24,000 bases of DNA from Clostridiales bacterium (GTDB lineage: Bacteria; Bacillota; Clostridia; Christensenellales; Aristaeellaceae). The DNA lies in assembly GCA_015056255.1 (NCBI GenBank), contig SVGP01000023.1, positions 1 through 24,000 on the forward strand. The letters are read 5' to 3'. The position numbers and the translations under genes were made by a program. Under the pieces are notes generated by a model. The model was not told where the DNA came from, ran no database searches, and was given only the letters and a program-made list of their open reading frames with translations. This document shows, one piece after another, positions 7,843 through 23,742 of the stretch (its first letter is position 1; the number at the start of each line of letters is the position of its first letter).

Positions 7843-8376
7843 TTACAGCTCGTATCCAAGCGAAATCGCTTTTTTATTAAGCTCAATCAGGTTCTGTCTC
7901 TTTGCGGAAACGACCTTCTGGATGGTTTTGTCGATGGCTTCTACCGGGAACATGCTTGTTTCCTTGAGCATTTTGCCCATGATGATCATGTTTGCCAAGG
8001 TCGCCATGCCCTCTTCGCCCGCAATTTTGGTGGCGGGGATGCCGAAGGCCTTTACGTCTTCGCGCTTGACCTCGCGGTCAATCAGTGAGGAATCGTAGAA
8101 GATCATGCCGCCGGGCGTGACCGCGTCTTCAAACTTATCGAGCGAGGGAAGGTTCATCGCGATCAGCACGTCCGGATTCGGAACGAGGGGCGAGCCGATG
8201 GGGGTATCCGAAATGATGACGGAGCAGGAAGCCGTGCCGCCGCGCATTTCGGGGCCGTAGGAGGGAAGCCATGTGACTTCCTTGTTTTCAAGAAGGCCCT
8301 CATAGGCCAAGAATTTTCCGGTAAACAGAACGCCCTGTCCGCCGAAGCCGGAGATTAAGATATTCACTTGTTTCAT
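7843..8376 (-). CDS. 2-oxoacid:ferredoxin oxidoreductase, gamma subunit (VOR/KOR family)
   Basis: [19 protein letters not shown]...[16 protein letters not shown] is the characteristic gamma-subunit signature. A 4-nt ATGA overlap with the beta subunit indicates translational coupling. Confidence 0.9.
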
Positions 8377-9125
8377 TTTCCGGCCTCCTCCGCGTACTTA
8401 TCCTTGTAAACGCCTAAAGGATAATACGGCATCATGTTTTCCTCCAGCCACTTAAGCGCCTTATCGGGCGTAAGACCCCAATTGGTGGGGCAGGTAGAAA
8501 GAACCTCGATCAGGGAAAAGCCCTTGCCCTCAAGCTGATACCGGAAGGCCTTTTTGATGGCGCGGGCGGCGTTTTTAACGTTCTTGACGTCGTTTACAGC
8601 AACGCGCTCAAGGTAAGCAGCGCCGGTAACATTGCTTAAAAGCTCGCAGACCTTTACAGGATAGCCGACGGATTCAACCTGTCTTCCATAAGGAGAGGTC
8701 TGGGTGACCTGTCCGGGCAGCGTGGTCGGGGCCATCTGACCGCCAGTCATGCCGTAAATGGCGTTGTTTACGAAGATAACGGTGATGTTTTCGCCTCTGG
8801 CTGCGCTGTGCACGGTTTCTGCAGTGCCGATGGCGGCAAGGTCGCCATCACCCTGATAGGTGAAGACGATGTTATTGGGATCAGCGCGCTTTACGCCGGT
8901 GGCGACTGCGGGCGCGCGGCCATGAGCGGCCTGAACCATGTCGCAGTTGAAATAATTATAGGCAAATACAGAGCAGCCGACGGGGGCCACGCCGATGGTT
9001 CTGCCTTCGATGCCCAGTTCGTCAATGGCCTCGGCAACCAGGCGATGAATGATGCCGTGGGTGCAGCCGGGGCAATAGTGAAGTTTTACATCCGCAAGCG
9101 CTTTCGGCTTTTCAAATACGATCAT
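8373..9125 (-). CDS. 2-oxoacid:ferredoxin oxidoreductase, beta subunit (TPP-binding)
   Basis: YCPGCTHG Cys motif and GDGD...AIG...N TPP/Mg-binding block (YQGDGDLAAIGTAETVHSAARGENITVIFVNNAIYGMTGGQ). Confidence 0.92.
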   Translation of the reverse strand: MIVFEKPKALADVKLHYCPGCTHGIIHRLVAEAIDELGIEGRTIGVAPVGCSVFAYNYFNCDMVQAAHGRAPAVATGVKRADPNNIVFTYQGDGDLAAIGTAETVHSAARGENITVIFVNNAIYGMTGGQMAPTTLPGQVTQTSPYGRQVESVGYPVKVCELLSNVTGAAYLERVAVNDVKNVKNAARAIKKAFRYQLEGKGFSLIEVLSTCPTNWGLTPDKALKWLEENMMPYYPLGVYKDKYAEEAGK

Positions 9126-10196
9126 TTACTTATCGCCTCCATTCTTGGCTGCTGCTTCTTCAATGGACTGAAGTACCTGTTCGGGAGTGGGGATCATGCC
9201 GCCGGTACGGGAGCAGAGGGTCACGGGGCGCGAGCAGCGGATGGCAAGCTCGACATCCTCAATCATCTGGCCCATGTTAAGCTCGACCGAAATAAACGCC
9301 TTTGCGGTCTTGGCCTTTTCGAAAAGAACCTTCTTCGGGAACGGCCAAAGGGTGATCGGGCGGATCATACCGGCCTTGATGCCCTTTTCGCGCGCAGCGA
9401 CGATGGCGTTTCTGGCAACACGGGCAGCCACGCCGAAGGCGACGACCACGATGTCCGCGTCATCCGCCATGAATTCTTCGTACATCGCTTCGTTTTCTTC
9501 GATTTCCTTGTACATGGCATATCTTTTGATATTCCACTGCTCAAGCTCTTCCGGAAGCAGCGACAGGGAGTTTACGATGTTGTGGGTTCTTTCTCCCTTG
9601 GTGCCGGTGACCGCCCAGGGCTTATCGTACGCCTTGACTTCGCCCATGTCGAGGGAAACCGGCTCCATCATCTGACCCATAGTGCCGTCAGCAAGGATCA
9701 TGGTGGTCATGCGGTATTTGTCGGCAAGGTCAAAGCCCTTGAACACCAGGCTCGCCATTTCCTGAACGGATGCGGGCGCGAGCACCAGCATTCTGAAGTC
9801 GCCGTGTCCTGCGCCGCGGGTGGCCTGAAAATAGTCGGACTGGCTGGGCTGAATGCCGCCAAGGCCGGGCCCGCCCCTCTGTACGTTTACAATCAGCGCG
9901 GGAAGATCGCAGCCGGCCAAGTAGCTGATGCCTTCGCTTTTTAAGGAAATTCCGGGGCTGGAGGAGGAGGTCATAACGCGCTTGCCGGCGGAGGCAACGC
10001 CGATGACCATATTGATGGCGGCGACTTCGCTTTCCGCCTGAAGGAAGGTTCCGCCGATCTGGGGCATGCGCTTGGCCAGATACGCCGCAACCTCCGTCTG
10101 AGGCGTGATGGGATAGCCGAAATAATGGCGGCAGCCGGCCATGATGGCGGCTTCAGCCAGGGCTTCGTTGCCCTTCATAAGCACTTTATCTGCCAT
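9126..10196 (-). CDS. 2-oxoacid:ferredoxin oxidoreductase, alpha subunit
   Basis: MKGNEALAEAAIMAGCRHYFGYPITPQTE is the conserved alpha N-terminus. Start set at ATG 10196 (MADKVLMKG). The longer ORF would overlap the delta gene. Confidence 0.9.
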   Translation of the reverse strand: MADKVLMKGNEALAEAAIMAGCRHYFGYPITPQTEVAAYLAKRMPQIGGTFLQAESEVAAINMVIGVASAGKRVMTSSSSPGISLKSEGISYLAGCDLPALIVNVQRGGPGLGGIQPSQSDYFQATRGAGHGDFRMLVLAPASVQEMASLVFKGFDLADKYRMTTMILADGTMGQMMEPVSLDMGEVKAYDKPWAVTGTKGERTHNIVNSLSLLPEELEQWNIKRYAMYKEIEENEAMYEEFMADDADIVVVAFGVAARVARNAIVAAREKGIKAGMIRPITLWPFPKKVLFEKAKTAKAFISVELNMGQMIEDVELAIRCSRPVTLCSRTGGMIPTPEQVLQSIEEAAAKNGGDK

Positions 10197-10207
10197 AATC
10201 TTGTTTC

Positions 10208-10414
10208 CTACCTTTCCACAGTGATCACGCAGTCCGGGCACATGGTGGCGCAGAAAGCGCAGCCGATGCACTTTTCAGGTTCCGTGACCTTTGCCGGGTG
10301 ATGTCCCTGCTGGTTTAATTTCGTTTCGTCGAGCGCGACGATTTTCTTGGGGCATGCGCCCACGCAAAGGCCGCAGCCCTTGCATCTTTCCTCGCGGAAC
10401 GTTACTTTTGCCAT
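10208..10414 (-). CDS. 2-oxoacid:ferredoxin oxidoreductase, delta subunit (2x[4Fe-4S] ferredoxin)
   Basis: Two CxxCxxCxxxCP motifs: CKGCGLCVGACP and CIGCAFCATMCP. 68 aa. GGAGGAA ribosome-binding site. Confidence 0.9.
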   Translation of the reverse strand: MAKVTFREERCKGCGLCVGACPKKIVALDETKLNQQGHHPAKVTEPEKCIGCAFCATMCPDCVITVER

Positions 10415-10432: not shown

Positions 10433-11101
10433 TCAATAGATCGCCCATTCGTCGCGGAAATGGAGCCGGATGGGCATGGGATGAACCACTTTGCCTTTGA
10501 TTTCGTTTATCAAATCCTCGCGGACGGTCGTGCCCAGAAGCGGAAGATTTGTTTTTTCGGAAACCTCTCTTGCAAGCGCGTCCGTTTCTGCGATATCCGA
10601 AACCGCAGTCATTTGTCCGAGATTGGAATTGTTGAGAAGGGCCGTAACTTTCATGCCGGAAGCGGTTTCCACTTCCCGAAGCACGCTGATCAATTGATCC
10701 GCCGTCCTCGTAAGCGGACGATAGAAGTTCATCACGAACACCATTTCGTAATCGTCCTCCGCCATTAAGGAAGGCGCGAGCCGTCCAAGCGCAAGCGCGC
10801 CTCTGTCGTCACCGCCAACGTCCACAACCGCGTGCGTTTGCTTGTCGTCGATGATCCTGTACATCTCTTCGGGCAGCGCGGGCACGTCCACATTGGTGTT
10901 TGCGTAGCTTGAAACCACGATTTCCACGCCCGCATCCTTCAGCGCCTTTTCGCTGTCTCTCGTTCTGAAATACGGGTTAACGATGTCAAGATCCGCTATC
11001 AGCGTTTTAAGGCCTTCTTTTTTGAGTCCCAGCGCGTAATTGACCGCGATATTGGTTTTGCCGCTTCCGTAGTGGCCTGAAAAAAGCGTTACTCTTTTCA
11101 C
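10433..11101 (-). CDS. P-loop NTPase of unknown function (MinD/ParA/CooC-like SIMIBI fold)
   Basis: The Walker A-like motif is FSGHYGSGKTNIAVNYA, followed by LIADLDIVNP and VVDVGGDDRG (Walker B-like). The GTG start abuts the ilvE stop (TAAGTG). No closer family is recognisable by eye. Confidence 0.7.
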   Translation of the reverse strand: MKRVTLFSGHYGSGKTNIAVNYALGLKKEGLKTLIADLDIVNPYFRTRDSEKALKDAGVEIVVSSYANTNVDVPALPEEMYRIIDDKQTHAVVDVGGDDRGALALGRLAPSLMAEDDYEMVFVMNFYRPLTRTADQLISVLREVETASGMKVTALLNNSNLGQMTAVSDIAETDALAREVSEKTNLPLLGTTVREDLINEIKGKVVHPMPIRLHFRDEWAIY

Positions 11102-12166
11102 TTATATTTTCTCCGTCCAGCCGAATGCGTCTTCCTTCTTGCCCCACTGGATGCCGGTGAGCTCGTCATACAGCTTCTGGGTGAGCTCGCCGATGTTCCC
11201 GCCGTTTACGACATAAGGAACGTCGTCCACGGACAATTCGCCGATGGGAGACACGACAGCCGCCGTTCCGCAGCCAAACGCCTCTTCAAGCGCGCCCGTT
11301 TTAACCGCCTCGGCCAATTCGTCCACGGAAAGGAGCCTTTCCTCTACCGGGACGCCCCACTTTTCAAGAAGCGCGATACAGCTTCTTCTGGTGATGCCGG
11401 GAAGAACGGATCCTGTGAGCTTCGGGGTAACGACGGTTCCGTTAATTTTGAACATGACGTTCATGGAGCCGACCTCTTCGACATATTTGCGCTCTACGCC
11501 GTCCAGCCACAGAACCTGGGCAAAGCCTTTCTTTTCGGCCTTTTCGCCGGCGCGCATGGAGGCTGCGTAGTTGCCGCCGCACTTGGCATAGCCGGTGCCG
11601 CCGCGAACCGCGCGAACGTCCTCGGTTTCGATCATAATACGGACGGGGTTTACGCCTTCCTTATAATAAGAACCGGAAGGCGAAAGAATGATGATGAAGG
11701 TGGCGTTGTTTACAGTGTGAACGCCCAGGAACGGGTCGTTTCCGAACAGGAAGGGGCGGATATAAAGGGACGCGCCTTCCGCGGAAGGAACCCAGTCGCG
11801 GTCGATATCGATCAGGGTTTTTAAAGCCTTTAAGCAGAATTCGCCGTCGATTCTGGGAAGGCAGAGGCGGTCGGCGGAATCGTTCATGCGGTCAAAGTTG
11901 TCCATGGGGCGGAACAGCTGAATTTCGCCGTCCGGACGGCGGTAGGCCTTCATGCCCTCGAAAATCTCCGCGCCGTAGTGAAGCACGGTAGACGCAGGCG
12001 AGATGGAAATGTTGCCGTAGGGAACGATTCTTGCGTCGTGCCAGCCGTTTTCGCGGTCAAACTCCATCACAAACATGTGATCAGTAAAAACTTTTCCAAA
12101 GCCCAGTTTGCTTGCGTCGGCGGGCTTTACTTTGGGATTCATATTTTTTTCAATACGGATTTCCAT
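11102..12166 (-). CDS. ilvE: Branched-chain amino acid aminotransferase (class IV PLP enzyme)
   Basis: LGFGKVFTDHMF, HYGAEIFEGMKAYR, GTGYAKCGGNYAAS, PGITRRS and GTAAVVSPIG blocks are typical of long-form IlvE. Confidence 0.93.
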   Translation of the reverse strand: MEIRIEKNMNPKVKPADASKLGFGKVFTDHMFVMEFDRENGWHDARIVPYGNISISPASTVLHYGAEIFEGMKAYRRPDGEIQLFRPMDNFDRMNDSADRLCLPRIDGEFCLKALKTLIDIDRDWVPSAEGASLYIRPFLFGNDPFLGVHTVNNATFIIILSPSGSYYKEGVNPVRIMIETEDVRAVRGGTGYAKCGGNYAASMRAGEKAEKKGFAQVLWLDGVERKYVEEVGSMNVMFKINGTVVTPKLTGSVLPGITRRSCIALLEKWGVPVEERLLSVDELAEAVKTGALEEAFGCGTAAVVSPIGELSVDDVPYVVNGGNIGELTQKLYDELTGIQWGKKEDAFGWTEKI

Positions 12167-12215: not shown

Positions 12216-14729
12216 TTATTGATTTGAAAGGCCAAATATTTCCGCAGCTTTTTCGCGCATCTTGTATTTTTGAATTTTGCCTGCGTCGTTCATGATGAAT
12301 TTGTCTACAAACCACACGTACTTGGGCACCTTGTGGCGAGCCATATTGGCGCGGACATAAGCCTTTACGTCCTCTTCCGTCATTTCCTCGCCCTCGCGGA
12401 CAATGACGCAGGCCATAATTTCTTCGCCGTACTGCTTATCGGGAACGCCGATGACCTGAACGTCGGAAATTTTGTCATGCGTAATTAGGAATTCCTCAAT
12501 CTCGCGCGGATAAATGTTTTCGCCGCCTCTGATGATCATGTCCTTGAGTCTGCCCGTCACGCGGTAGTTTCCGTCCTTGTCGCGGATGCAAAGGTCGCCG
12601 GTGTGCAGCCACCCTTCCCTGTCGATGGCTTCGTATGTTGCGGAGGGCATTTTGTAGTAGCCCTTCATGATGTTGTAGCCTCTGGCTACGAATTCGCCCT
12701 GCTCGCCGTCGGGCAGCTCCTTTCCGGTTGCGGGATCGATGATCCTGCATTCGATTTCGGGAAGCGCGCAGCCCACGGTCTGGGTGCGAACGTCCAGAGA
12801 ATCCTCATAGCATCTGCTCATCGTGCAGCCGGGCGCGGCCTCCGTCTGACCATAGACGGATACGATGCCGGTCATGTTCATGCGCTTGGCCGCTTCCCGC
12901 ATGACGCTTTCGGGGCAGTTTGCGCCGGCCATGATGCCGGTTCGCATGTGGGAAAAATCGGTCTTTTCAAAGTCCGGATGCGAAAGCATGGCGATAAACA
13001 TCGTGGGAACGCCATTAAAGCAGGTGATTTTTTCGCGGTTCACGCAGTCCAGCGCGGGCTTGGGCGAAAAGTACGGAAGCGGGCACATGGTGCTTCCGTG
13101 CGTCATGGACGCAGTCATGGAAAGTACCATGCCGAAGCAGTGGAACATGGGCACCTGGATCATCATGCGGTCAGCGGTGGAAAGATCCATTCGGTCGCCG
13201 ATGCATTTTCCGTTGTTGACAACTCCCCTGTGCGTGAGCATGACGCCCTTGGGAAAGCCGGTGGTGCCGGAGGTATACTGCATGTTGGCAACGTCGTCGC
13301 CCTTGATTTCGCTTGCGCGCCTGTATACTTCCTCCAGAGGAACCATGGGCGCACGGTCCATCATTTCATCAAACGTTAAGCATCCTTCCATTTTAAAGCC
13401 GACTGTAACGACGTTTCTTAAGAATGGAAGCCTTTGGGCGTGCAGTGGCTGGCCGGGCTCGGTGTGTTCAAGCTCCGGGCAAAGGCGTTTGATGGTGTCT
13501 ACATAGTTGGAATCGCGGAAGCCGTCCACCATGATAAGCGTGTGGGTATCGGACTGACGCAAAAGGTATTCCGCCTCGGCAATTTTGTAGGCGGTGTTCA
13601 TGGTGACGAGCGTCGCGCCGATTTTTGTAGTCGCCCAGAAGGCGATGTACCACGCGGGCACGTTGGTTGCCCACACGGTTACGTGGCTGTCTCGCTTGAC
13701 GCCCAGAGAAATGAGCGCACGGGCGCAGGCGTCCACATCGTCCCTAAACTGGGAATAGGTGCGCGTGTAGTCGAGGGTGGTGTATTTAAAGCACAATTGA
13801 TCCGGGAATTCCTTGACCATTCTGTCCAGCACCTGCGGGAAAGTCATGTCGATCAAGCTGTCGTGCTTCCAGACATATTTTCCGGTGCCCGCTTTATTGA
13901 GATACAATCCCTGCTCCCATGCGGGCGCGGGCTCAAAGTTTTTGACAAAGGAGGCAAAGTGCGCATACACTACGCCCGGGTCGTCCACTTCCTTAAGCCA
14001 CTCGGGATCCCATTCGAGGGAATAAAAGCCGTCGTAGCTGACGCTTCTTAACGCGCCGAAGATTTCCTTCATCGGAAGCGTGCCTTCGCCGAGCAGGCAG
14101 TATTCTGATTTTCCATCCTTAACGACCGAATCCTTCAGGTGCACATGCTTTACATATGCGCCGAGATTGGTGATCGTCTTTTCGGGCTTTTCGCCCATCA
14201 GGCGGTATGGATGGTGCACATCCCACAAAGCCGCCAGATGATCGCAGGCAAATTCATTTAAAATGCCGACCAGGCGCGAAGTATCGGCAAATATGCCGCA
14301 GGTTTCAATAAGCAAGGTAACGTCCGCCTTTTCAGCAAGCGGCAGAACTTTTTTAACCAGTTCCTTTACGTTTTCGTTTTCCTTTTCCTCGCCCTCGCCT
14401 GTTGAAAGCGCGCGCAGGCGTACAAAGGGAGCGTTTACCTTATCTGCAAAGGCGATGAGGTTTTTAATTTCCTCAGCTCTTTTGCCGTCTTCATCGTTTT
14501 CTGCGGGGTTCATGCGCGCATCAAGGCAGGTGATCGTGAGCCCCAGCGCTTTTAAGGATCGAACGGTGTGGTCGATTTCACCCTTTTGAAACGGCGCGCC
14601 AACGCCCGTAAACCGGCTTTCGCCGATATCGTGAATCTCGATGCCGTCAAGGCGCATTTCCCTTGCCACCGACACAAAATCGGCAAAGGAAAAGCTGTTC
14701 CAGCCGTAGGTGGATACGGAAAGCTTCAT
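12216..14729 (-). CDS. Fusion protein with an N-terminal xylose-isomerase-like TIM barrel (sugar phosphate isomerase/epimerase family) and a C-terminal AMP-forming acyl-CoA ligase
   Basis: Residues 1 to about 265 show TIM-barrel features (LDGIEIH, LLIETC, HLKD, SLEW). From about residue 290 the sequence is FadD-like, with YTSGTTGFPKGVMLTH (A3/P-loop), GQTE, WLHTGDL, RLKDMIIRGGENIYPREIE and a C-terminal GKIQK lysine motif. It overlaps the upstream gene by 4 nt (ATGA). Confidence 0.85.
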   Translation of the reverse strand: MKLSVSTYGWNSFSFADFVSVAREMRLDGIEIHDIGESRFTGVGAPFQKGEIDHTVRSLKALGLTITCLDARMNPAENDEDGKRAEEIKNLIAFADKVNAPFVRLRALSTGEGEEKENENVKELVKKVLPLAEKADVTLLIETCGIFADTSRLVGILNEFACDHLAALWDVHHPYRLMGEKPEKTITNLGAYVKHVHLKDSVVKDGKSEYCLLGEGTLPMKEIFGALRSVSYDGFYSLEWDPEWLKEVDDPGVVYAHFASFVKNFEPAPAWEQGLYLNKAGTGKYVWKHDSLIDMTFPQVLDRMVKEFPDQLCFKYTTLDYTRTYSQFRDDVDACARALISLGVKRDSHVTVWATNVPAWYIAFWATTKIGATLVTMNTAYKIAEAEYLLRQSDTHTLIMVDGFRDSNYVDTIKRLCPELEHTEPGQPLHAQRLPFLRNVVTVGFKMEGCLTFDEMMDRAPMVPLEEVYRRASEIKGDDVANMQYTSGTTGFPKGVMLTHRGVVNNGKCIGDRMDLSTADRMMIQVPMFHCFGMVLSMTASMTHGSTMCPLPYFSPKPALDCVNREKITCFNGVPTMFIAMLSHPDFEKTDFSHMRTGIMAGANCPESVMREAAKRMNMTGIVSVYGQTEAAPGCTMSRCYEDSLDVRTQTVGCALPEIECRIIDPATGKELPDGEQGEFVARGYNIMKGYYKMPSATYEAIDREGWLHTGDLCIRDKDGNYRVTGRLKDMIIRGGENIYPREIEEFLITHDKISDVQVIGVPDKQYGEEIMACVIVREGEEMTEEDVKAYVRANMARHKVPKYVWFVDKFIMNDAGKIQKYKMREKAAEIFGLSNQ

Positions 14730-16120
14730 ACATTGGCCTCCCTGTAAACGATCTTGTTAAGGGCGTTTAAGTACGCGCGGATGGACGCTCCGATAATATC
14801 TGTGGAAATGCCGCGCCCGGAATAGAGCTTGCCGCCGTCGCGCAGCTTTACCAGCGCTTCGCCCATGGCCTCGCGACCGCTGGTTACGGACTGAATTTCA
14901 AAATCGTCCAATTCGTAGTGGTGACCGACGACATTTTCAATCGCCATGAACGCCGCGTCGATCGGGCCATCGCCTGCGGAGAGACCCTGAACGGTCTCGC
15001 CCAGCTTATCAAGAACGATATGCGCGGTGGCGCTGATAATATTTCCGCTGTTGACCACGTAGCTTGAAAGCTTGTAGGTCGGGGGTACCTGAAGGGCGAC
15101 GGATGCGATGATCGCATCGAGCTCTCTTGCATCCACAGGCTTTTTGAGGGACATATTCTGAAACGCCTCAAACACCTTGGCAAGGTCTTCGCTGGAAAGA
15201 TCGTAGCCTAAGAGGGATGCGGCTCTTGCGACGGACGCGATGTCCGCGTTTTTATCGAGTTCCTTTTTGGGCTGCGCAGGAACGGCCAATTCTGCGCCGT
15301 TTAACGATTCCTTGGGCATGGCGCGGTCGAATCTTGCAATCAGGCTGACGGCTCGCTTCAGTGCAGTTTTGTCCACGTTGATCGCGGCTCCGACCTTTTC
15401 ACCCCTTGCGCTTAAGATATTGGTCATCTCTTCAAGGCCAGGCTGATCGCCAGAGGCGCAAACCGTGATCTGGTTGGCTCCGGCGCGGACTGCTTCAAAC
15501 GCGCAGGCGCAGGCCATGGAGATGGCGTTTCCGGTCTTTACGCCCACGTTTCTTTCGTGAAGCTCGGGAACGGATACATAAAGGCCCTTGATGAACGCGC
15601 CGAATTCGTCCGGCAGCATTTCGCCTGCGTCGTCCGAAACGGTGATCGTTTTTGCGCCTGCGTTCACTGCGGTTTCAACCGCTTTCGCAAGGAAGCTTTC
15701 CTCAGCGCGGGTAGCGTCAAGGGCGGTGAATTCAACATCCTCAATATAAGCCGCAGCGGTTTTTACCATCTGCTCAATCATTTCAAGCATGGCAGCCGGC
15801 TTCTTTTTATACATATACTCCATCTGAACGATGGAAACGGGCAGTTTTACGTTCAGGCGCGCTTTTTTTGCGTCCTTTACCGCATTGTAGGCCGCTTCCA
15901 CTTCTTCCATATTGAGAACCGGGCAGGAAACAATGCTGTTTACGGTCTGCTGCGCAACGGACTTGATCAGAATTTCATTGGCCTTTGCGCCTGCGATTGC
16001 GCTGGTTTCGATCACGTCCACATGAACGCCGTCCAAAATGCGCGCAGTTTCCAGCTTTTCTTTGAAGCTCATACCCTGTTTCGCCGAAAGCGTCGTTTCA
16101 ACAAGTCTGATGGTTTTCAT
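14726..16120 (-). CDS. 2-isopropylmalate synthase-like protein with degenerate catalytic motifs and an intact LeuA-type C-terminal regulatory domain
   Basis: The HMGL-like barrel aligns by eye to LeuA. DTTLRDGEQ is replaced by ETTLSAKQG, the metal-binding HxH(NDLG) by VKTGNAIS, and no HESGIH block is present. The C-terminus (GDGPIDAAFMAIENV...GRGISTDIIGASIRAYLNALNKI) is a good LeuA dimerisation/allosteric domain. Start set at the second ATG (16120), 8 nt after AAGGAG. Confidence 0.85.
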   Translation of the reverse strand: MKTIRLVETTLSAKQGMSFKEKLETARILDGVHVDVIETSAIAGAKANEILIKSVAQQTVNSIVSCPVLNMEEVEAAYNAVKDAKKARLNVKLPVSIVQMEYMYKKKPAAMLEMIEQMVKTAAAYIEDVEFTALDATRAEESFLAKAVETAVNAGAKTITVSDDAGEMLPDEFGAFIKGLYVSVPELHERNVGVKTGNAISMACACAFEAVRAGANQITVCASGDQPGLEEMTNILSARGEKVGAAINVDKTALKRAVSLIARFDRAMPKESLNGAELAVPAQPKKELDKNADIASVARAASLLGYDLSSEDLAKVFEAFQNMSLKKPVDARELDAIIASVALQVPPTYKLSSYVVNSGNIISATAHIVLDKLGETVQGLSAGDGPIDAAFMAIENVVGHHYELDDFEIQSVTSGREAMGEALVKLRDGGKLYSGRGISTDIIGASIRAYLNALNKIVYREANV

Positions 16121-16162
16121 ATTCATATCTCCTTTGGCTCAATATGCGCTTGAATCAATGTT

Positions 16163-16461
16163 TTTCAAAAAAACACGCCCCGGAAACACCTGTTTCCGGG
16201 GCGACAATTTTATTATCGCGGTACCACCCGAATTGATTGCCGAAAAAGCAACCCTCTCATTTAAGGTTCCAATAAACCCTGCGCCAAGATAACGGGGCGA
16301 ACCGTGACGCCTTACTGAAGAAGTTTTTGAAATTCTCCGTTCAGGCATCCTGCTCGAGAAGGAGATGATTCCAATCACTCTGCGCCGCCTCGCACCAAAC
16401 ACGGCTCTCTTCAGCAGGTTGGAAAGGAACCTGGTTCCGTCATAGCATTTGATTTTGCAAT
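16163..16461 (-). promoter_or_regulatory. T-box riboswitch leader 1 (inferred specifier CUC, Leu) with terminator/antiterminator
   Basis: The minus-strand RNA has a K-turn (UGCUAUGAC GGAA ... UUCU CGAGCA), an AG bulge (AGAGAG) and a distal loop (UUUGGUGCGA). The T-box sequence AAUUCGGGUGGUACCGCG lies at 16234-16217. The antiterminator CGGG[UGGUACC]GCGA...UCGC-CCCG competes with the terminator GCCCCGGAAACA-GG-UGUUUCCGGGGC plus a U7 run (16203-16163). The codon at the canonical position is CUC (16364-16362). Confidence 0.88.
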
Positions 16462-16467
16462 GGAGAA

Positions 16468-16496
16468 ACTATACCATTTCAAGCGCAATTTGTCAA
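16468..16496 (-). promoter_or_regulatory. Sigma-A promoter of T-box unit 1
   Basis: TTGACA (16496-16491), a 17-nt spacer ending in TGG (extended -10), then TATAGT (16473-16468). Confidence 0.7.
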
Positions 16497-16554: not shown

Positions 16555-18876
16555 TTAGAGCTTGTTTCTCTGAATCTTGCCGCTTGTGGTCTTGGGCAAT
16601 TCATCACGGAAGACGACAATGCGCGGATATTTATAAGGCGCGGTCTTCTTCTTGACGTAATTCTGGATTTCCTTTTTAAGTTCCTCCGTAGGCTCCGTTC
16701 CCTTGGTAAGGACGATGCTCGCCTTGACCACCTGACCGCGGATTTCATCCGGCGCAGCGGATACGCCGCACTCAATAACATAGGGAAGCTCCATAATGAC
16801 GGATTCGATTTCAAACGGCCCGATTCGGTAACCGGAGGACTTGATCACGTCGTCCACGCGGCCCACATACCAGAAGTAGCCGTCTTCGTCCATCCACGCG
16901 GTATCGCCCGTGTGGTACATGCCATCGGAAACATCCAGAACCGGCTTTTTGAGCGTATTATCGTAGTATCCGCGCGTAAGGCCGCAGGGCAGGCCGTCTT
17001 CCACATGGATGACGATTTCGCCCGTTTCGCCGACGCCCACGCTCTTGCCCTCCGGATTTACAATGTCCACATCGTACAGCGGCACGGGTTTTCCCATGGA
17101 ACCGACCTTGGGCGTCATGCCGACGGTGTTTCCGATCATCATAGTGGTTTCCGACTGGCCGAAGCCCTCCATGAGGGATAAGCCCGTGGCCTTCTTGAAC
17201 TGGTGGAACACCTCGGGGTTCAGGGCCTCGCCCGCGATGGTCGCATGCTTGATGGAGGAAAGATCGAACTTCGAAAGATCCTCCTTGATCATGAAGCGAT
17301 ACATGGTGGGCGGCGCGCAGAAGGTGGTGATGTTGTATTTTTTGAACATCGGAAGGATATCGTTGGCGTCGAAGCGATCAAAGTCGTATACGAAAATCGC
17401 GCCTTCGCTCAGCCACTGACCGTAGAGCTTGCCCCACATGCTCTTGGCCCAGCCGGTGTCGGAAATGGTGTAGTGAAGGCCGTTGGGGTCGACGGTATGC
17501 CAGTAGTGGGCGGTAATGAAGTGGCCCAGCGGGTAGGTATATGTGTGGGATGCGATCTTGGGATAGCCGGTTGTTCCGCTGGTAAAGAACATGAGCATAA
17601 GGTCCTCGCCCTCGGGGCGTTTTTCGCCTTCCGGCACGGTGAGGGTAGATCTGAACATGCGGTATTCCGTGTCAAAGCTTCTCCAGCCATCGCGTTCGCC
17701 CTCAACCACGATGCGGTTACCAACAAACGGACACTCCTCAAGCGCAAGCTCCGCCTGATTGATGCAGTCGCCGACGCCGGTCACGATGACGGTGGAGACG
17801 CCGGCGGCAGTAAATCTGTAGGAAAGATCCTTTTTCAGAAGCTGGTTGGGTGCGAGGATTGCGATTGCGCCGATTTTCTGAAGCGCCATCATGATGATCC
17901 AGAACTGATAATGACGGCGGAGCATCAGAAGCACCTTGTCGCCCTTTTTGACGCCGATGGATCTGAAGTAGTTGGCGGCGCGGTTGGAAAGGCGCGAAAT
18001 ATCGGCAAAGGTGAAGCGGTTTTCCACGCCGTCGCGCGAAATGTGCATCATGGCCAGCTTTTCAGGGTTGTTCTTACCCAGCTCGTCCACAATGTCAAAG
18101 GCAAAGTTGAACTTTTCAGGATTTTTGAAGGAAATGGCTTTCAAAGAGCCATCGGGATTTTCAACCGCGTCCACCCACTTCGACCAGATGTGCTCGCCCT
18201 CGGGCGCAGTATGCACGGGCGCGGGCGCAATTTCGACCTTGGGAAGGGTCATCATGGGCTCTTTGACGGTGAGCTCCGGAATCGCATCGCCCGACGGATT
18301 TAAAACAATCGCGTAAAACAGGCAGTTTTCGCCGCCCACCGCGATCATGCCGTGGGGCTTGGAGGAGTCGTAATAGATGCTGTCGCCGGGGCCCAGAATC
18401 TCCCAGTGCGTTCCGACCTGCACCTTGAGCTTACCGGAAATAACGATATCGCATTCCTGGCCCTCGTGGCTGGTCAGTTCAATGTCCTGATACTGCGCCT
18501 CCTCGGAATAGGCGGCGTTTACGTACAAAGGCTCAGCGATTCGGTTTTTGAACTGCGCAGCGAGGTTATAGTACACCATGCCGTGCGCCTGCTCTATCCT
18601 CTGCCCCATGCCGTTTCTGGTTACGGTGTAGCCGGAAAGACGGGGGCTCGCGCCCTCGATAATATCGGTAACGTCAACATTCAAAACCAGCGCGCAGCGG
18701 TAAATAAAGGCGAAGTTCAGATCCGCCTTGCCCGCCTCGCAAAGTCTGTATTCCTCAATCGTAACGCCCGTCTTTTTGGCCATGCTCTCTTCGGAAATAC
18801 CCTCGATTTCACGAAGCTCCTTAATACGGCCTGCCATCTCCTGAAGCTTGAATTCCAGACCCGTCGTCTGATTCAT
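16555..18876 (-). CDS. HTH(XRE)-cupin-acyl-CoA synthetase fusion (AMP-forming, medium/short-chain ACS-like), paralog A
   Basis: Residues 12-72 form a Cro/C1-type HTH (RIKELREIEGISEESMAKKTGVTIEEYRLCEAGK). Residues around 105-195 form a cupin (SHEGQECDIVISGKLKVQVG...GDSIYYDSSKPHG). The remainder is an AMP-binding enzyme (FTSGTTGYPKIASHT, GFGQSETT, YHTGDTA, DDVIKSSGYRIGPFEIES, SGKIQRN). Start at ATG 18876, with AAAGGGGG 9 nt upstream. Confidence 0.9.
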   Translation of the reverse strand: MNQTTGLEFKLQEMAGRIKELREIEGISEESMAKKTGVTIEEYRLCEAGKADLNFAFIYRCALVLNVDVTDIIEGASPRLSGYTVTRNGMGQRIEQAHGMVYYNLAAQFKNRIAEPLYVNAAYSEEAQYQDIELTSHEGQECDIVISGKLKVQVGTHWEILGPGDSIYYDSSKPHGMIAVGGENCLFYAIVLNPSGDAIPELTVKEPMMTLPKVEIAPAPVHTAPEGEHIWSKWVDAVENPDGSLKAISFKNPEKFNFAFDIVDELGKNNPEKLAMMHISRDGVENRFTFADISRLSNRAANYFRSIGVKKGDKVLLMLRRHYQFWIIMMALQKIGAIAILAPNQLLKKDLSYRFTAAGVSTVIVTGVGDCINQAELALEECPFVGNRIVVEGERDGWRSFDTEYRMFRSTLTVPEGEKRPEGEDLMLMFFTSGTTGYPKIASHTYTYPLGHFITAHYWHTVDPNGLHYTISDTGWAKSMWGKLYGQWLSEGAIFVYDFDRFDANDILPMFKKYNITTFCAPPTMYRFMIKEDLSKFDLSSIKHATIAGEALNPEVFHQFKKATGLSLMEGFGQSETTMMIGNTVGMTPKVGSMGKPVPLYDVDIVNPEGKSVGVGETGEIVIHVEDGLPCGLTRGYYDNTLKKPVLDVSDGMYHTGDTAWMDEDGYFWYVGRVDDVIKSSGYRIGPFEIESVIMELPYVIECGVSAAPDEIRGQVVKASIVLTKGTEPTEELKKEIQNYVKKKTAPYKYPRIVVFRDELPKTTSGKIQRNKL

Positions 18877-18895
18877 GAATAAAAGCCCCCTTTCA

Positions 18896-19192
18896 GTCAA
18901 AAAAATCCGCCTCAAAGAAACATATCGTCTTTGAGGCGAATGAAAAAATCTTTCACACGCGGTACCACTCAAATTCACGCATTTTGAAAATGCGCCTCAC
19001 GGCTCCATCAAGCCGTTCTCCCTTTTCGCAGGCTCACGGGAGGCTCTACTGATTTCGGTCACCCGAAACGTTCTGCCGTCCGGCTCGGAAGCGACAAATT
19101 CTGCCTTCTCGTTACCGGCTCGCACCAAGCGCCGGCTCTCTGAAACGATTTTCCGTCAGAATCCTCTTCGTCATCGCCAATGATATGAAATT
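18896..19192 (-). promoter_or_regulatory. T-box riboswitch leader 2 (inferred specifier GUC, Val)
   Basis: The minus-strand RNA has a K-turn (GGCGAUGAC GAAG ... CUUC CGAGCC) and an AG bulge plus distal loop (AGAGAGCCGGCGCUUGGUGCGAGCCGG). The T-box sequence AAUUUGAGUGGUACCGCG lies at 18975-18958. The antiterminator is UUGAG[UGGUACC]GCG...CGC-CUCAA. The terminator is CGCCUCAAAGA, 9 nt, UCUUUGAGGCG, then GAUUUUUUU (18938-18896). The codon at the canonical position is GUC (19095-19093), followed by G. Confidence 0.88.
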
Positions 19193-19198
19193 AGAGAT

Positions 19199-19227
19199 AT
19201 GATACCACGAAGGGCGGAATCTGTCAA
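19199..19227 (-). promoter_or_regulatory. Sigma-A promoter of T-box unit 2
   Basis: TTGACA (19227-19222), a 17-nt spacer ending in TGG, then TATCAT (19204-19199), preceded by a T-rich UP-like tract. Confidence 0.7.
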
Positions 19228-19304: not shown

Positions 19305-19327
19305 AAAAATATAAGGAGGCGATGTGC

Positions 19328-19594
19328 ATGCCAGAACTAAGCAGGTTTGCCGGAATCATTGTCAAAATGATTTTCAACGATACCGTTCAACATAATAAAC
19401 CCCACGTTCACGTATATTACGGTGAATATCAGGCCTCCATCGGCATTGATGGCGAATTATTGGCAGGTTCACTGCCTGTAAAGCAGCTAAAAATGGTTGT
19501 TGGATGGCTGGCACTTCACGAAGAAGAGGCCTATGCTGCATGGAATAAGGCTGTACGCGGCGAACGCTTCGACAAGATCAAACCCCTGATTTAA
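19328..19594 (+). CDS. DUF4160-family small protein
   Basis: MPELSRFAGIIVKMIFND..HNKPHVHVYYGEYQASIGIDGELLAGSLP matches the DUF4160 pattern (MP.ISRF.GI.I.MY..DH.PPHFH). Start taken at ATG 19328, 8 nt after AAGGAGG. Confidence 0.8.
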   Translation: MPELSRFAGIIVKMIFNDTVQHNKPHVHVYYGEYQASIGIDGELLAGSLPVKQLKMVVGWLALHEEEAYAAWNKAVRGERFDKIKPLI

Positions 19595-19605
19595 GGAGAT
19601 ATGCT

Positions 19606-19890
19606 ATGTATATTATTGACGGAATCGCATATGCATCCCAAAAAATGCAGGAAACATTCGTAACGGCAGTTAAACCGCTTGACGATATGATGATGATCGT
19701 CACATTCGGATCCGGCGAAAAACGATTGTATGACGCCTCTCAACTTCTCGATTTCCCAGCATTTCAACCCCTTAAAGATGAAACTGTTTTCATGAATGCA
19801 AAGGTGGAATATGGCGTCGTCACATGGGCGGACGGTGAAATCGACATTGCGCCGGAAACCATGTACGAAAACAGCTACGAATATCAATAA
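19606..19890 (+). CDS. DUF2442-family small protein
   Basis: The pattern (V.PLDD..L.V.F..GE.R..D...LLD.P.F.PL.D...F..V.V..G.V.W..GEIDIAPE.LYE) is typical of DUF2442. AAGGAG lies 7 nt upstream. The start is 11 nt after the DUF4160 stop. Confidence 0.8.
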   Translation: MYIIDGIAYASQKMQETFVTAVKPLDDMMMIVTFGSGEKRLYDASQLLDFPAFQPLKDETVFMNAKVEYGVVTWADGEIDIAPETMYENSYEYQ

Positions 19891-21113: not shown

Positions 21114-23390
21114 TTACAGAAGATTCCTCTGGATCTTTCCGCTGATGGTTTTGGGAAGCTCATCCTTGAAGACGACGATTCTCGGATACTTGTAGGGCGC
21201 GGTTTTGTGCTTTACGTATTCCTGAATTTCCTTTTTGAGTTCCTCGGTGGGTTCGGTGCCCTTGGTTAAGACGATGCTCGCCTTGACCACCTGGCCGCGG
21301 ATCTCGTCGGGGGCTGCGGAAACGCCGCACTCGAGGACGTAGGGAAGCTCCATGATGACGGATTCGATTTCAAACGGCCCAATGCGGTAGCCGGAGGACT
21401 TGATCAGATCGTCCACGCGGCCTACATACCAGAAGTAGCCGTCTTCGTCCTTCCATGCGGTATCGCCGGTGTGGTACATGCCGTCCGAAAGGTCGATTTC
21501 AGGAACGCCCTTTTCGTTGTTGTAATAGCCGAGAGTAAGACCCATCGGGGGCTTGCCGTCCTTAAGGCGCACGACGATTTCGCCGGTTTCGCCCTGCTGG
21601 ACGCTGTTGCCGTCGTGATCGACGATGTCGATGTCGTAATTGGGAACGGGCTTGCCCATGGAGCCGACCTTCGGGCGCATACCGACGAGATTGGCGATGG
21701 TAAGGGTGGTTTCGGTCTGACCGAAGCCTTCCATAAGGGAGATGCCCGTGGCTTTTCTGAACTGATAGAAGACCTCGGGGTTCAAAGCTTCGCCTGCGAT
21801 GGTGGCATGCTCAATGGAAGAAAGATCGTATTTGGAAAGATCTTCCTTGATCATGAAGCGATACATGGTGGGCGGCGCGCAGAAGGTTGTGATGTGATAC
21901 TTTTTGAACATCGGCAGAATGACAGAGGCGTCGAAGCGGTCAAAGTCGTATACGAACGTCGCCGCCTCGCACATCCACTGGCCGTAAAGCTTGCCCCACA
22001 GCGCCTTGCCCCAGCCGGTGTCGGAGATAGTGAAGTGAAGGCCATCTGGGTTGACGTTGTGCCAATATTTGGCGGTAGCAAAATGCGCAAGCACGTATTT
22101 ACAGGAGTGAGTTGCGATCTTGGGATAGCCCGTCGTTCCGCTTGTAAAGAGCATGAGCATGGGATCGTCGCCCTTGATGGAATCCTCCGTTCTCGGGAAG
22201 GTGGAGGAGAACATGCGGGCTTCGGTGTCAAAGTCGCGCCAGCCCTCGCGAACGCCGTCGACGATGATTCTGTGTTTTAAAGTCGGGCTGTCCTTAAGCG
22301 CCTTGTCTACTTCTTCTGCAACCTTTCCCGTGCCCGTACAGATGATAGCGGAAACGCCGGCGGCATTGAAGCGGTAGGTAAGGTCGTGTTCGACCAGAAG
22401 GTTGGTTGCGGGGATGACGATTGCACCCAGCTTATGAAGCGCAAGAATGGCCTGCCAGAACTGATAATGGCGGCGCAGAATCAGCATGACTCTGTCGCCC
22501 TTTTTGATGCCGAGGGATTTAAAATAGTTGGCAACGCGGGAGGAAGAGCGGGAAAGCTCGCGGAAAGTGAACTTTCTTTCCTCCATATTGCGGCTTACGT
22601 GAACCATTGCAACCTTATCGGGCTTCTTTTCGGCGATGGCGTCCACGATATCGAAGGCAAAGTTGAACTCGTCCGCGTTTTTGTATTTGATCTCCTTGAC
22701 AAGGCCGTTTTCGTCCTCAACGCCCTCGACGAATTTTTCATAAATTCTGCCCTCAGTGCGCTTGGCGGCGACGATGGTGTCCCTGATTTCGAGCTCCTCC
22801 GTCTCCTCGCCCGGCAGTACCACCGCGCAGAAATAGCAGTCCTGACCTTCCACCGCGATCATGCCGTGGGGCGTTGAGGAGTCGTAATAGATGCTGTCGC
22901 CTTCATGCAGGATCTCGGTATGCTCGCCCACCTGCACCTTCAGTGCGCCGGACATGATCAGGTCAAATTCCTGACCGCTGTGGCGGGTCAGATGGATGGG
23001 GCTTTTCTGCTGCTCGGGCGAATATTCGTATTTTACAAAATAAGGCTCGGCAATCTTCTTTTTGAAAAGCGGCGCAAGGGACCTGATTTCAAGGCCTACT
23101 TCGCGCGCGGTAACCGTGCCCTGGCCTTTTCTGGTAACGGTGTACTGGGTCAGGCGCGCGGATTTACCTTCCATAAGGTCGGTGATTTCAACGCCCAGTT
23201 CCAGCGCGCATTTGTGGATGAAGCTGAAGGGGAAGTCCAGCTGGCCGTCCTCGTACTGCACATACATTTCGAGGCTCACTTCCGTGCGCTCGGCCATTTC
23301 CTCCCTTGAAAAACCAGCGATTTCACGCAGCTCACGAATTCGGGCCGCCACCTCGAAGATTTTATTGGTCGCGTTGTTTGTCGCCTGCAT
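21114..23390 (-). CDS. HTH(XRE)-cupin-acyl-CoA synthetase fusion, paralog B
   Basis: Same three-domain layout as 16555-18876: RIRELREIAGFSREEMAERTEVSLEMYVQYEDGQ, then RHSGQEFDLIMSGALKVQVG...GDSIYYDSSTPHG, then FTSGTTGYPKIATHS...SGKIQRN. The C-terminal 90 aa are nearly identical to paralog A. Start at ATG 23390, with GGAGGG upstream. Confidence 0.9.
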   Translation of the reverse strand: MQATNNATNKIFEVAARIRELREIAGFSREEMAERTEVSLEMYVQYEDGQLDFPFSFIHKCALELGVEITDLMEGKSARLTQYTVTRKGQGTVTAREVGLEIRSLAPLFKKKIAEPYFVKYEYSPEQQKSPIHLTRHSGQEFDLIMSGALKVQVGEHTEILHEGDSIYYDSSTPHGMIAVEGQDCYFCAVVLPGEETEELEIRDTIVAAKRTEGRIYEKFVEGVEDENGLVKEIKYKNADEFNFAFDIVDAIAEKKPDKVAMVHVSRNMEERKFTFRELSRSSSRVANYFKSLGIKKGDRVMLILRRHYQFWQAILALHKLGAIVIPATNLLVEHDLTYRFNAAGVSAIICTGTGKVAEEVDKALKDSPTLKHRIIVDGVREGWRDFDTEARMFSSTFPRTEDSIKGDDPMLMLFTSGTTGYPKIATHSCKYVLAHFATAKYWHNVNPDGLHFTISDTGWGKALWGKLYGQWMCEAATFVYDFDRFDASVILPMFKKYHITTFCAPPTMYRFMIKEDLSKYDLSSIEHATIAGEALNPEVFYQFRKATGISLMEGFGQTETTLTIANLVGMRPKVGSMGKPVPNYDIDIVDHDGNSVQQGETGEIVVRLKDGKPPMGLTLGYYNNEKGVPEIDLSDGMYHTGDTAWKDEDGYFWYVGRVDDLIKSSGYRIGPFEIESVIMELPYVLECGVSAAPDEIRGQVVKASIVLTKGTEPTEELKKEIQEYVKHKTAPYKYPRIVVFKDELPKTISGKIQRNLL

Positions 23391-23417
23391 GAAAATCCCT
23401 CCTTTGAAATGAATTTT

Positions 23418-23707
23418 GAAAATAAAAAAACGCCCCAAAGAAACCACTGTTTCTTTGAGACGAAAATCACTTTATAGATTTCCGCGGTACCACTCAAATT
23501 GCGTTTGTCAAAAACGCCCCTTAACAGGCTCCATCAAGCCCTGCGCCTGTAACGCTGCGCCAGCGGGAAGAGACTACTGGAAAAATTTCATCCTTCCGGC
23601 TCGGGAGTGATGGGCACATTGACCATATGCTTTCGCCGGCTTTCACCAAGCGCCGGCTCTCTGTGGAAATGCATTTTGATCTGCCGTCTCCGTCATTGCT
23701 TTTCTTG
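23418..23707 (-). promoter_or_regulatory. T-box riboswitch leader 3 (inferred specifier AUC, Ile)
   Basis: The minus-strand RNA has a K-turn (AGCAAUGAC GGAG ... CUCC CGAGCC) and an AG bulge plus distal loop (AGAGAGCCGGCGCUUGGUGAAAGCCGGCG). The T-box sequence AAUUUGAGUGGUACCGCG lies at 23500-23483. The terminator is CGUCUCAAAGAAAC, 4 nt, GUUUCUUUGGGGCG, then a U7 run (23462-23418). The codon at the canonical position is AUC (23611-23609), followed by A. Confidence 0.88.
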
Positions 23708-23713
23708 GAAGAT

Positions 23714-23742
23714 ATATTACCACCGATCGCCACGTTTGTCAA
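23714..23742 (-). promoter_or_regulatory. Sigma-A promoter of T-box unit 3
   Basis: TTGACA (23742-23737), a 17-nt spacer ending in TGG, then TAATAT (23719-23714), with an A/T-rich UP-like tract upstream. Confidence 0.7.

Follow-up and report, generated by a model that had tools for sequence, protein, structure and literature searches.

What does a homologue of 2-isopropylmalate synthase (IPMS, LeuA) do when it appears to have lost the residues needed for catalysis? The question is raised by a LeuA-like gene on the reverse strand of a 24,000-nucleotide stretch of Clostridiales bacterium DNA (GenBank assembly GCA_015056255.1, contig SVGP01000023.1, positions 1 to 24,000), which was analysed as a whole and is called the window here. 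An initial annotation, made from the sequence alone, had described the product as a LeuA pseudoenzyme that keeps the leucine-type regulatory domain. It had suggested a regulatory or scaffolding subunit, possibly giving branched-chain amino acid feedback to a downstream acyl-CoA ligase or to 2-oxoisovalerate:ferredoxin oxidoreductase (VOR). We put at about 50% the probability that the LeuA-like protein is a leucine-sensing regulatory partner of an isovalerate-CoA ligase, acting in the salvage of branched-chain fatty acids to amino acids. The LeuA-like open reading frame (ORF) and its parts are as follows.

14726..16126, reverse strand: LeuA-like ORF of 466 amino acids, with an ATG at 16126 preceded by AAAGGAG
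15332..16126, reverse strand: residues 1–265, HMGL-like TIM barrel with a dead active site (alignments, superposition on 3ewb)
15242..15331, reverse strand: residues 266–295, remnant of accessory subdomain I with the HxxGIHQDG block deleted (alignment, predicted disorder)
15092..15241, reverse strand: residues 296–345, accessory subdomain II, kept (alignment; helices in the AlphaFold2 model)
14726..15091, reverse strand: residues 346–466 and the stop codon, LeuA allosteric/dimerisation domain PF08502 (Pfam, conservation)
14954..14974, reverse strand: GDGPIDA within the PF08502 domain

The start previously placed at 16120 is the second in-frame methionine of this ORF, while its end at 14726 and its full-length homology to LeuA both hold. 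Pfam searches of the 466-residue protein matched HMGL-like (PF00682) at residues 15–226 (3e-30) and LeuA_dimer (PF08502) at residues 332–459 (1.5e-30), the latter covering positions 3–130 of the 131 in the profile. Against NCBIfam, the best LeuA equivalog (NF002086) scored 281 bits where its cutoff is 532, and all six PRK00915/TIGR00973-type LeuA models (five equivalogs and one subfamily) scored far under their cutoffs. Models for NifV and CimA were much weaker still than the bacterial LeuA equivalogs (45–49 bits for CimA). Judged from sequence, the protein is a LeuA paralogue by descent.

To place the catalytic motifs, we used three alignments: phmmer against the LeuA catalytic domains in the PDB (3rmj, 3ewb, and 3eeg), MAFFT, and L-INS-i, with both MAFFT alignments including E. 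coli LeuA (NC_000913). Together with re-translation of the DNA, they show that DTTLRDGEQ has become ETTLSAKQG (16073..16099) and PDTVG has become SDDAG (15623..15637). Opposite the (x)HxHND of LeuA, positions 15527..15541 encode VKTGN (KTGNA lies within 15524..15541), so that the metal-binding HxH is gone, and the HxxGIHQDG block falls within a 27-residue deletion. The initial annotation had named these four losses and asked that they be checked by alignment; all three alignments placed the motifs identically and matched its residue claims. They further show that GIGERAGN is replaced by ASGDQPG, with loss of the metal-binding Asn. In the window protein, the metal-ligand positions are thus occupied by A15, K197, and G199, with the Asn deleted or replaced, and the substrate-binding Arg of DTTLRDGEQ corresponds to S14.

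The same losses recur in a family alignment of 106 sequences, made up of the query and 105 representatives of clusters at 50% identity. With catalytic positions numbered as in E. coli LeuA, the metal ligands H202, H204, and N238 are essentially never retained, and the positions themselves are unconserved within the family. H295 and H300 of the subdomain I catalytic block are deleted in 106 of 106 sequences, as is the whole 27-residue segment spanning HxxGIHQDG. Retention is partial at two positions, the metal ligand D14 (9/106) and the substrate Arg R13 (34/106). Second-shell LeuA motifs are kept in the barrel (D137, R140, D165, S98, and MEY..KKP); of these, D137, R140, D165, and MEY..KKP might contribute to an interface or to what is left of a ligand site. 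The alignment shows that the predicted catalytic residues have been lost across the whole family, the window protein included. Because the defining catalytic features fail, annotation of the protein as an IPMS is inappropriate.

An AlphaFold2 (AF2) model of the protein has a mean predicted local distance difference test (pLDDT) score of 89.2, and its sole disordered stretch is residues 270–287 (pLDDT below 50), in the remnant of subdomain I. The modeled barrel superposes on the N-terminal domain of Listeria LeuA (3ewb) with a root-mean-square deviation of 1.6 Å over 268 columns and a template modeling score of 0.93. In a fold search with the model, the full chain matched full-length Mycobacterium tuberculosis LeuA, including the leucine-bound structure 3fig. 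The top match was 6e1j, a MAM-type LeuA paralogue, and other matches were 3hps (M. tuberculosis LeuA with ketoisocaproate in the active site) and the aldolase-dehydrogenase structures 1nvm and 4jn6. The predicted fold is therefore intact and of the LeuA type. Since the alignments agree and the barrel superposes at 1.6 Å, the register is unshifted and the active site is gone.

The regulatory domain has fared differently from the barrel, as the mean pairwise identities of the four regions show.

Regulatory domain: 58% within the family, 37% between the family and true LeuA
Subdomain II: 41% within the family, 27% between the family and true LeuA
Barrel: 33% within the family, 26% between the family and true LeuA
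Subdomain I remnant: 14% within the family, 12% between the family and true LeuA

Conservation in the family reaches 93–100% at G385, G387, P388, D390, and A391 of the GxGPxDA loop, at G422, at S441, T442, and D443 (STDI), and at A451, Y452, A455, and N457 (AY..A.N). G422 aligns with G462 of E. coli LeuA, which we take to be the site of the feedback-resistant mutation G462D. Some positions set the family apart from true LeuA, among them E. coli E486, which is Gly in 88 of 106 sequences, and an HYELDDF motif. Good conservation of the C-terminal LeuA domain, claimed initially for 14753..15079, is thus borne out by the Pfam match and the within-family identity. The wider description of a LeuA-derived pseudoenzyme with a conserved allosteric domain likewise agrees with family-wide residue losses in a protein whose most conserved region is PF08502. 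In true IPMS, the leucine site sits in the dimer of these regulatory domains, and inhibition restricts interdomain flexibility by rigidifying the accessory and regulatory domains, while subdomain I caps the active site and supplies the catalytic His and Tyr (PMC9860122). The domain binds Leu in IPMS and Ile in CimA (PMC9860122, PMC13381585), and when cut from CimA it serves as a stand-alone module for specific amino-acid recognition (PMC13381585).

How widespread is the family? Among 5.8 billion proteins searched, at least 120 were full-length relatives of 460–470 residues and 50–99% identity; they came from metagenome-assembled genomes (MAGs) of Clostridia and bore the names 'hypothetical' or 'alpha-isopropylmalate synthase regulatory domain-containing'. 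When representatives at 50% identity were searched exhaustively with HMMER, about 105 full-length clusters emerged, with identities between 81% and 32%, and true LeuAs (about 505 residues, with every motif present) scored below almost all of them. Scanning one genome per species, we found at least 587 stretches that encode relatives, some of which may be true LeuA because the search patterns were derived from the regulatory domain. The best 80 of these came mostly from Acutalibacteraceae, Oscillospiraceae, Lachnospiraceae, Faecousia, Blautia, and Ruminococcus of gut and rumen; a few MAGs among the 80 are labelled Synergistaceae, Coriobacteriaceae, or Eggerthellaceae.

Two sets of unusual proteins turned up in these searches. 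Four proteins of 497–516 residues (P0251, P0257, P0258, and P0265) appear to be in an intermediate LeuA-like state: all four are without the HxxGIHQDG block, P0251, P0257, and P0258 retain HxH and GIGERAGN-like motifs, and P0265 is also without HxH and the terminal Asn. They may represent a further LeuA lineage that is partly degenerate or has been re-functionalised. Six short proteins (P0224, P0236, P0243, P0249, P0250, and P0262) carry a PF08502 domain that is 57–82% identical to that of the window protein, joined to unrelated partial N-termini (DctM, TGT, MFS, MBOAT, 7TMR, and Laminin_G). At locus L088 (2079..2882), the join falls inside the stretch coding for IIAS.ALQVPPTY and is followed by the native fusion ligase. 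Such joins are probably assembly chimeras rather than cases of natural domain shuffling.

If the LeuA-like protein is no synthase, the control of its gene may indicate which amino acid it serves. A T-box leader matching RF00230 lies directly upstream, which upholds the earlier placement of the gene as the first of a T-box operon.

16468..16496, reverse strand: Leu-unit promoter-like site, TTGACA-17 nt-TG-TATAGT, with 11 of 12 consensus matches and an extended -10 element (a consensus match only)
16194..16452, reverse strand: Leu T-box leader (RF00230, 101.8 bits against a gathering score of 93)
16362..16364, reverse strand: Leu specifier CUC (from aligned orthologous leaders)
16176..16203, reverse strand: Leu T-box terminator stem, a 12-bp hairpin followed by a T-run

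The promoter-like site falls between the stop of the preceding ligase gene (16555; the Val unit described below) and the Leu T-box. Because the Rfam alignment is ambiguous in the specifier loop, we read the specifier from an alignment of the 55 readable orthologous leaders upstream of LeuA-like genes. The specifier column is the triplet that precedes the lower Stem I helix and the K-turn; it holds CUC in most leaders and CUG in about 12, so that all 55 carry a leucine codon. Switching among synonymous Leu codons is the expected signature of a genuine specifier. The alignment thus shows a T-box upstream of the LeuA-like gene whose predicted specificity is for leucine. T-boxes turn on genes that supply the cognate amino acid.

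The second gene of the unit encodes a fusion of a xylose-isomerase-like TIM barrel (XylTIM) to an acyl-CoA ligase, and its start overlaps the stop of the LeuA-like gene in an ATGA (14726..14729), as first reported and now seen again on re-translation.

13875..14729, reverse strand: fusion residues 1–285, XylTIM domain (AP_endonuc_2; Pfam)
12216..13874, reverse strand: fusion residues 286–837, AMP-forming acyl-CoA ligase of the PRK12583 type (AMP-binding 2.5e-90; NF009233 660 bits)

Among the 79 genomic loci with at least 1.5 kb of sequence downstream of the LeuA-like gene, the fusion gene follows directly in all 79, with gaps of 0–209 nt that are mostly below 30. The pairing persists in relatives only 32–38% identical to the window protein, and the ligase is about 70% identical between loci. 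In a reciprocal search, made with the XylTIM domain as query against metagenomes of an independent collection, this domain was joined to the ligase in 53 of 53 cases. The LeuA-like gene lay immediately upstream in 62 of 66 loci; three more of the 66 have it at most 0.9 kb upstream with an extra small ORF between, and a LeuA-like gene lies within 2.3 kb in 65 of 66. The pairing of the LeuA-like gene with the fusion ligase is near-obligate. We propose that the fusion ligase is an isovalerate-CoA ligase, a substrate suggested by the Leu T-box and by the specificity of MbcS (below). In L119 (3134..3928), L129, and L130, the intervening ORF encodes about 264 residues and has no Pfam match.

The metal-ligand positions of the XylTIM domain, E142, D170, H197, and E239, are all present in the window protein, and the full E/D/H/E set is kept in about 75% of orthologues. 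Counted position by position, residue 142 is Lys in 18 of 71 orthologues, residue 170 is Asn in 18 of 71, and H197 is retained in 68 of 71 (loci L002–L087).

The genes that follow the LeuA-like gene are tightly packed, with gaps of 0–49 nt or overlaps, and beyond the fusion they encode an aminotransferase and an oxidoreductase.

11102..12166, reverse strand: IlvE, branched-chain amino acid aminotransferase (NF009897, 483 bits against a cutoff of 307)
10433..11101, reverse strand: P-loop ATPase of 222 residues, weakly CbiA/ParA/ApbC-like (weak Pfam matches)
10208..10414, reverse strand: ferredoxin-like protein of 68 residues with two CxxCxxCxxxCP ([4Fe-4S]) motifs (read from the translation)
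7843..10196, reverse strand: VOR genes (POR_N, PFOR_II, TPP_enzyme_C, POR)
9126..10196, reverse strand: VorB (NF005507, 531 bits against a cutoff of 399)
8373..9125, reverse strand: thiamine pyrophosphate (TPP)-binding subunit of VOR
7843..8376, reverse strand: gamma subunit of VOR

Its motifs make the 68-residue protein the probable delta subunit of VOR. The order of P-loop gene and then VorB is kept in about 40 loci (for example L009, 11716..12354), and the P-loop ATPase could help to mature the oxidoreductase or to insert its clusters. Genes for leuB, leuC, leuD, and a true leuA were absent from the 1.88 Mb of DNA flanking 168 loci, and we rejected membership of the isopropylmalate pathway on this lack of leuBCD linkage.

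Two further T-box units lie upstream of the Leu unit in the direction of transcription, each with its own ligase and a strong promoter-like site.

16555..19227, reverse strand: Val unit, with a promoter-like site (19199..19227), a T-box (18929..19183), and a ligase gene (16555..18876)
19093..19095, reverse strand: Val specifier GUC, followed by G
21114..23742, reverse strand: Ile unit, with a promoter-like site (23714..23742), a T-box (23453..23705; 102 bits), and a ligase gene (21114..23390)
23609..23611, reverse strand: Ile specifier AUC, followed by A

At 75 bits (E 1e-15), the Val leader falls under the Rfam gathering score of 93 and would be missed by default annotation. The ligase of the Val unit combines a helix-turn-helix (HTH) and cupin module with an MbcS-like enzyme (426 bits to the MbcS model NF047394, below that model's cutoff), and that of the Ile unit is an HTH-cupin-AMP ligase related to MbcS. 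In other genomes, leaders of HTH-cupin ligases carry AUC (15 leaders) or GUA, GUC, or GUU (11 leaders), and the two classes sort with two paralogue groups; the parser misreads about one third of leaders, and the counts are confined to those of canonical codon-N-stem-NGAG geometry. The three T-boxes (Ile, Val, and Leu), each before a different acyl-CoA ligase, look like one switch per acid/amino-acid pair. The purified MbcS of S. aureus is active on 2-methylbutyrate and isobutyrate and uses isovalerate poorly (PMC10026030), which would explain why the ligase of the Leu arm, the third in the window, is of another type. Roughly half of the genomic loci carry, at distances of up to 10 kb and in varying order, IlvE, VorB/A/C, the P-loop gene, and HTH-cupin ligases, of which there are often two.

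Both MbcS-like ligases carry the N-terminal module, an XRE-type HTH plus cupin of about 250 residues, which could be a DNA-binding autoregulator or an amino-acid-sensing appendage that parallels the dead LeuA. The GTG starts given by the ORF finder for both genes overlap the T-boxes, and translation probably begins instead at internal Met codons, those at 18876 and 23390.

How might a dead LeuA act in such a unit? We suggest that the Leu T-box would be opened by uncharged tRNA-Leu, and that the fusion ligase would convert isovalerate to isovaleryl-CoA. VOR would carboxylate isovaleryl-CoA reductively to 4-methyl-2-oxopentanoate, and IlvE would transaminate this to leucine. The LeuA-like protein would form a dimer through its regulatory domains, bind leucine there, and inhibit the ATP-consuming ligase at leucine sufficiency. 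Such inhibition would add fast allosteric feedback on the first step to the slower control by the T-box, the same two tiers that canonical leuA has. In the window as a whole, three starvation-induced entry points, one per acid/amino-acid pair, would feed the shared VOR and IlvE; the Ile-controlled ligase would be expected to take 2-methylbutyrate and the Val-controlled one isobutyrate. In this scheme we infer the ligase substrate, the direction of VOR, leucine binding, the physical complex, and inhibition. A regulatory or scaffolding subunit with amino-acid feedback, as suggested at the outset, is the reading that best fits the evidence, with the likely ligand narrowed from branched-chain amino acids in general to leucine. 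The ligase is a better-supported target than VOR because it adjoins the LeuA-like gene in 79 of 79 loci, whereas VOR is near in about half. We also advance, more tentatively, a specific form of this proposal: the LeuA-like protein may be a trans-acting leucine sensor that docks on the XylTIM domain and gates the isovalerate-CoA ligase, as one arm of a hitherto undescribed module, widespread in Clostridia of gut and rumen, that would turn branched-chain fatty acids into branched-chain amino acids by way of three T-boxes and three ligases, and in which each ligase has a sensing appendage, HTH-cupin for Ile and Val and the dead LeuA for Leu.

Several observations weigh against leucine sensing on behalf of the ligase. 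In the window, only the Leu T-box has VOR and IlvE behind it, an awkward arrangement for the Ile and Val arms; in several other genomes these genes lie behind the Ile-type ligase (for example L009; the window was compared with L009, L012, and L023). Since this placement differs between genomes, the wiring to amino-acid signals varies by lineage. The only fusion found without a LeuA-like gene upstream, at L165 (53..6538), is preceded by two plain AMP-ligases and no HTH-cupin. Because the metal ligands of XylTIM are intact in most orthologues, this domain may be a genuine enzyme that catalyses a step not included in the proposed pathway; it may also act catalytically in certain lineages and as a docking module elsewhere. 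As to the leucine-contact residues, a phmmer comparison of the regulatory domain alone with the PDB gave no significant match (3f6g, E 1.7). Finally, the barrel is moderately constrained (33% identity; D137, R140, D165, MEY..KKP) and could be a ligand site or interface with a role beyond scaffolding, and the regulatory domain could be conserved merely as a dimerisation module.

Were dimerisation all that this domain provides, the LeuA-like protein might be a scaffold or chaperone-like subunit for the folding, oligomerisation, or activity of the ligase, sensing no ligand, much as MbtH-like proteins serve adenylation domains. Obligate adjacency of the two genes fits such a subunit, as does the fact that PF08502 doubles as the dimerisation domain of LeuA. 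We nevertheless consider it unlikely, in that the residues under the strongest conservation (the GxGPxDA loop, the position of E. coli G462, and STDI) are shared with feedback-regulated LeuA and the regulatory domain is far more constrained than the barrel. The association with the Leu T-box is moreover exclusive, which fits a Leu-specific role, the Ile and Val ligases having another N-terminal module. A barrel with a new function, alone or together with XylTIM, is in our judgment an unlikely explanation. It would bind or transform isovaleryl-CoA, isovaleryl-AMP, or 4-methyl-2-oxopentanoate, either channelling to VOR or carrying out metal-independent chemistry. The retained second-shell motifs (D137, R140, D165, S98, and MEY..KKP) and the XylTIM ligands kept in about 75% of orthologues are compatible with this, and there are precedents in ketoisocaproate bound in the active site of M. 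tuberculosis LeuA (3hps) and in DRE-TIM barrels that channel with partner enzymes (the aldolase-dehydrogenases 1nvm and 4jn6). Yet the subdomain that caps the active site of IPMS and gives it the catalytic His and Tyr is deleted, and the lack of conservation at the metal and 2-oxoacid positions argues against a conserved replacement chemistry at the site.

Leucine might also be the wrong effector. Isoleucine, valine, 4-methyl-2-oxopentanoate, or isovalerate could take its place, perhaps as an activator of the ligase, given that PF08502 domains differ in ligand between IPMS and CimA and that this family has its own changes (Gly for E. coli E486 in 88 of 106 sequences, and HYELDDF). We think this quite improbable, as the Leu codon in 55 of 55 leaders links the unit to leucine supply and ancestry lies with the bacterial IPMS models (281 bits) rather than with CimA (45–49 bits). 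Least probable by far are two other readings to which the full-length LeuA homology might point, a decaying pseudogene and an IPMS or citramalate synthase that has diverged yet stays active, with its catalytic residues in a shifted register. Three independent alignments place the motifs identically and the 1.6 Å barrel superposition leaves no room for a register shift, which together ruled out a true synthase. The scores fall far under every equivalog cutoff, and linkage to leuBCD is lacking. Decay was ruled out by intact ORFs in hundreds of species and by 58% identity in the C-terminal domain.

The leucine-sensing proposal finds parallels in known systems. LeuA itself (PRK00915/TIGR00973) is the parent, with the same order of barrel, subdomain II, and PF08502, the same barrel fold to within 1.6 Å, and the same regulatory signature motifs. 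Unlike LeuA, the window protein has neither the metal ligands nor the substrate Arg, its subdomain I has lost the catalytic part, and the chain is about 50 residues shorter; its family is never beside leuBCD (168 loci) and always beside the ligase fusion. The nearest functional analogy is that of HisZ and HisG, the short-form ATP phosphoribosyltransferase. HisZ is a catalytically dead paralogue of HisRS that serves as a regulatory subunit and gives histidine feedback to HisG, the first committed enzyme. Folds and ancestry differ between the two cases, and the HisZ-HisG complex and its histidine binding are established experimentally, whereas here we infer both.

Separate regulatory subunits also occur in acetohydroxyacid synthase, where IlvH/IlvN binds Val and passes feedback to its catalytic partner (PMC13381585). 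The likeness is that a small subunit of its own, encoded next to the catalytic partner, binds a branched-chain amino acid; the differences are that IlvH/IlvN has an ACT-domain fold, is no pseudoenzyme, and regulates a de novo pathway. The plant enzymes methylthioalkylmalate synthase (MAM) and IBMS are likewise LeuA paralogues that took on new roles through loss at the level of domains, and they are the mirror image of the dead LeuA, having kept catalysis and lost the regulatory domain. MbcS of S. aureus (methylbutyryl-CoA synthetase), a characterised ligase for short branched-chain acids, is homologous to the Ile- and Val-controlled ligases of the window. It is without the HTH-cupin extension and feeds lipid synthesis, and the ligase of the Leu arm belongs to another subfamily (PRK12583) and carries XylTIM.

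The physiology that the module would serve is old. Isovalerate, isobutyrate, and 2-methylbutyrate are required or consumed by many anaerobes of rumen and gut, while the genes behind their conversion and its control are still poorly defined. Allison and co-workers reportedly found that rumen anaerobes carboxylate isovalerate, isobutyrate, and 2-methylbutyrate reductively to Leu, Val, and Ile. The logic of acyl-CoA, ferredoxin-dependent oxidoreductase, 2-oxoacid, and amino acid is the same, as is the habitat of rumen and gut. To our knowledge, as far as we searched, this literature defines no genes, T-box control, or LeuA-like component. A full-text literature search found no description of the LeuA-like family, the ligase fusion, or the T-box triad. 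A pseudoenzyme acting as a regulatory subunit is a known principle, and it is the surrounding gene system that appears to be undescribed. This physiology gains a molecular handle in a complete and testable gene set of three ligases, VOR with its ferredoxin and P-loop factor, and IlvE, with a regulatory logic, one T-box per amino acid, that can be read from sequence. If correct, the proposal would provide a clear HisZ-like case of a pseudoenzyme reused as an allosteric subunit, and a natural portable leucine sensor made from the LeuA regulatory domain, which is an aim of biosensor engineers. In hundreds of genomes, the proteins are named 'hypothetical', 'regulatory domain-containing', or, wrongly, '2-isopropylmalate synthase', and such misnaming could yield false calls of leucine prototrophy in metabolic models of gut Clostridia.

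One further feature of the window stands apart from these units. Between the Ile and Val units, a DUF4160/DUF2442 gene pair lies on the forward strand (19322..19890) and resembles a small inserted two-gene cassette.

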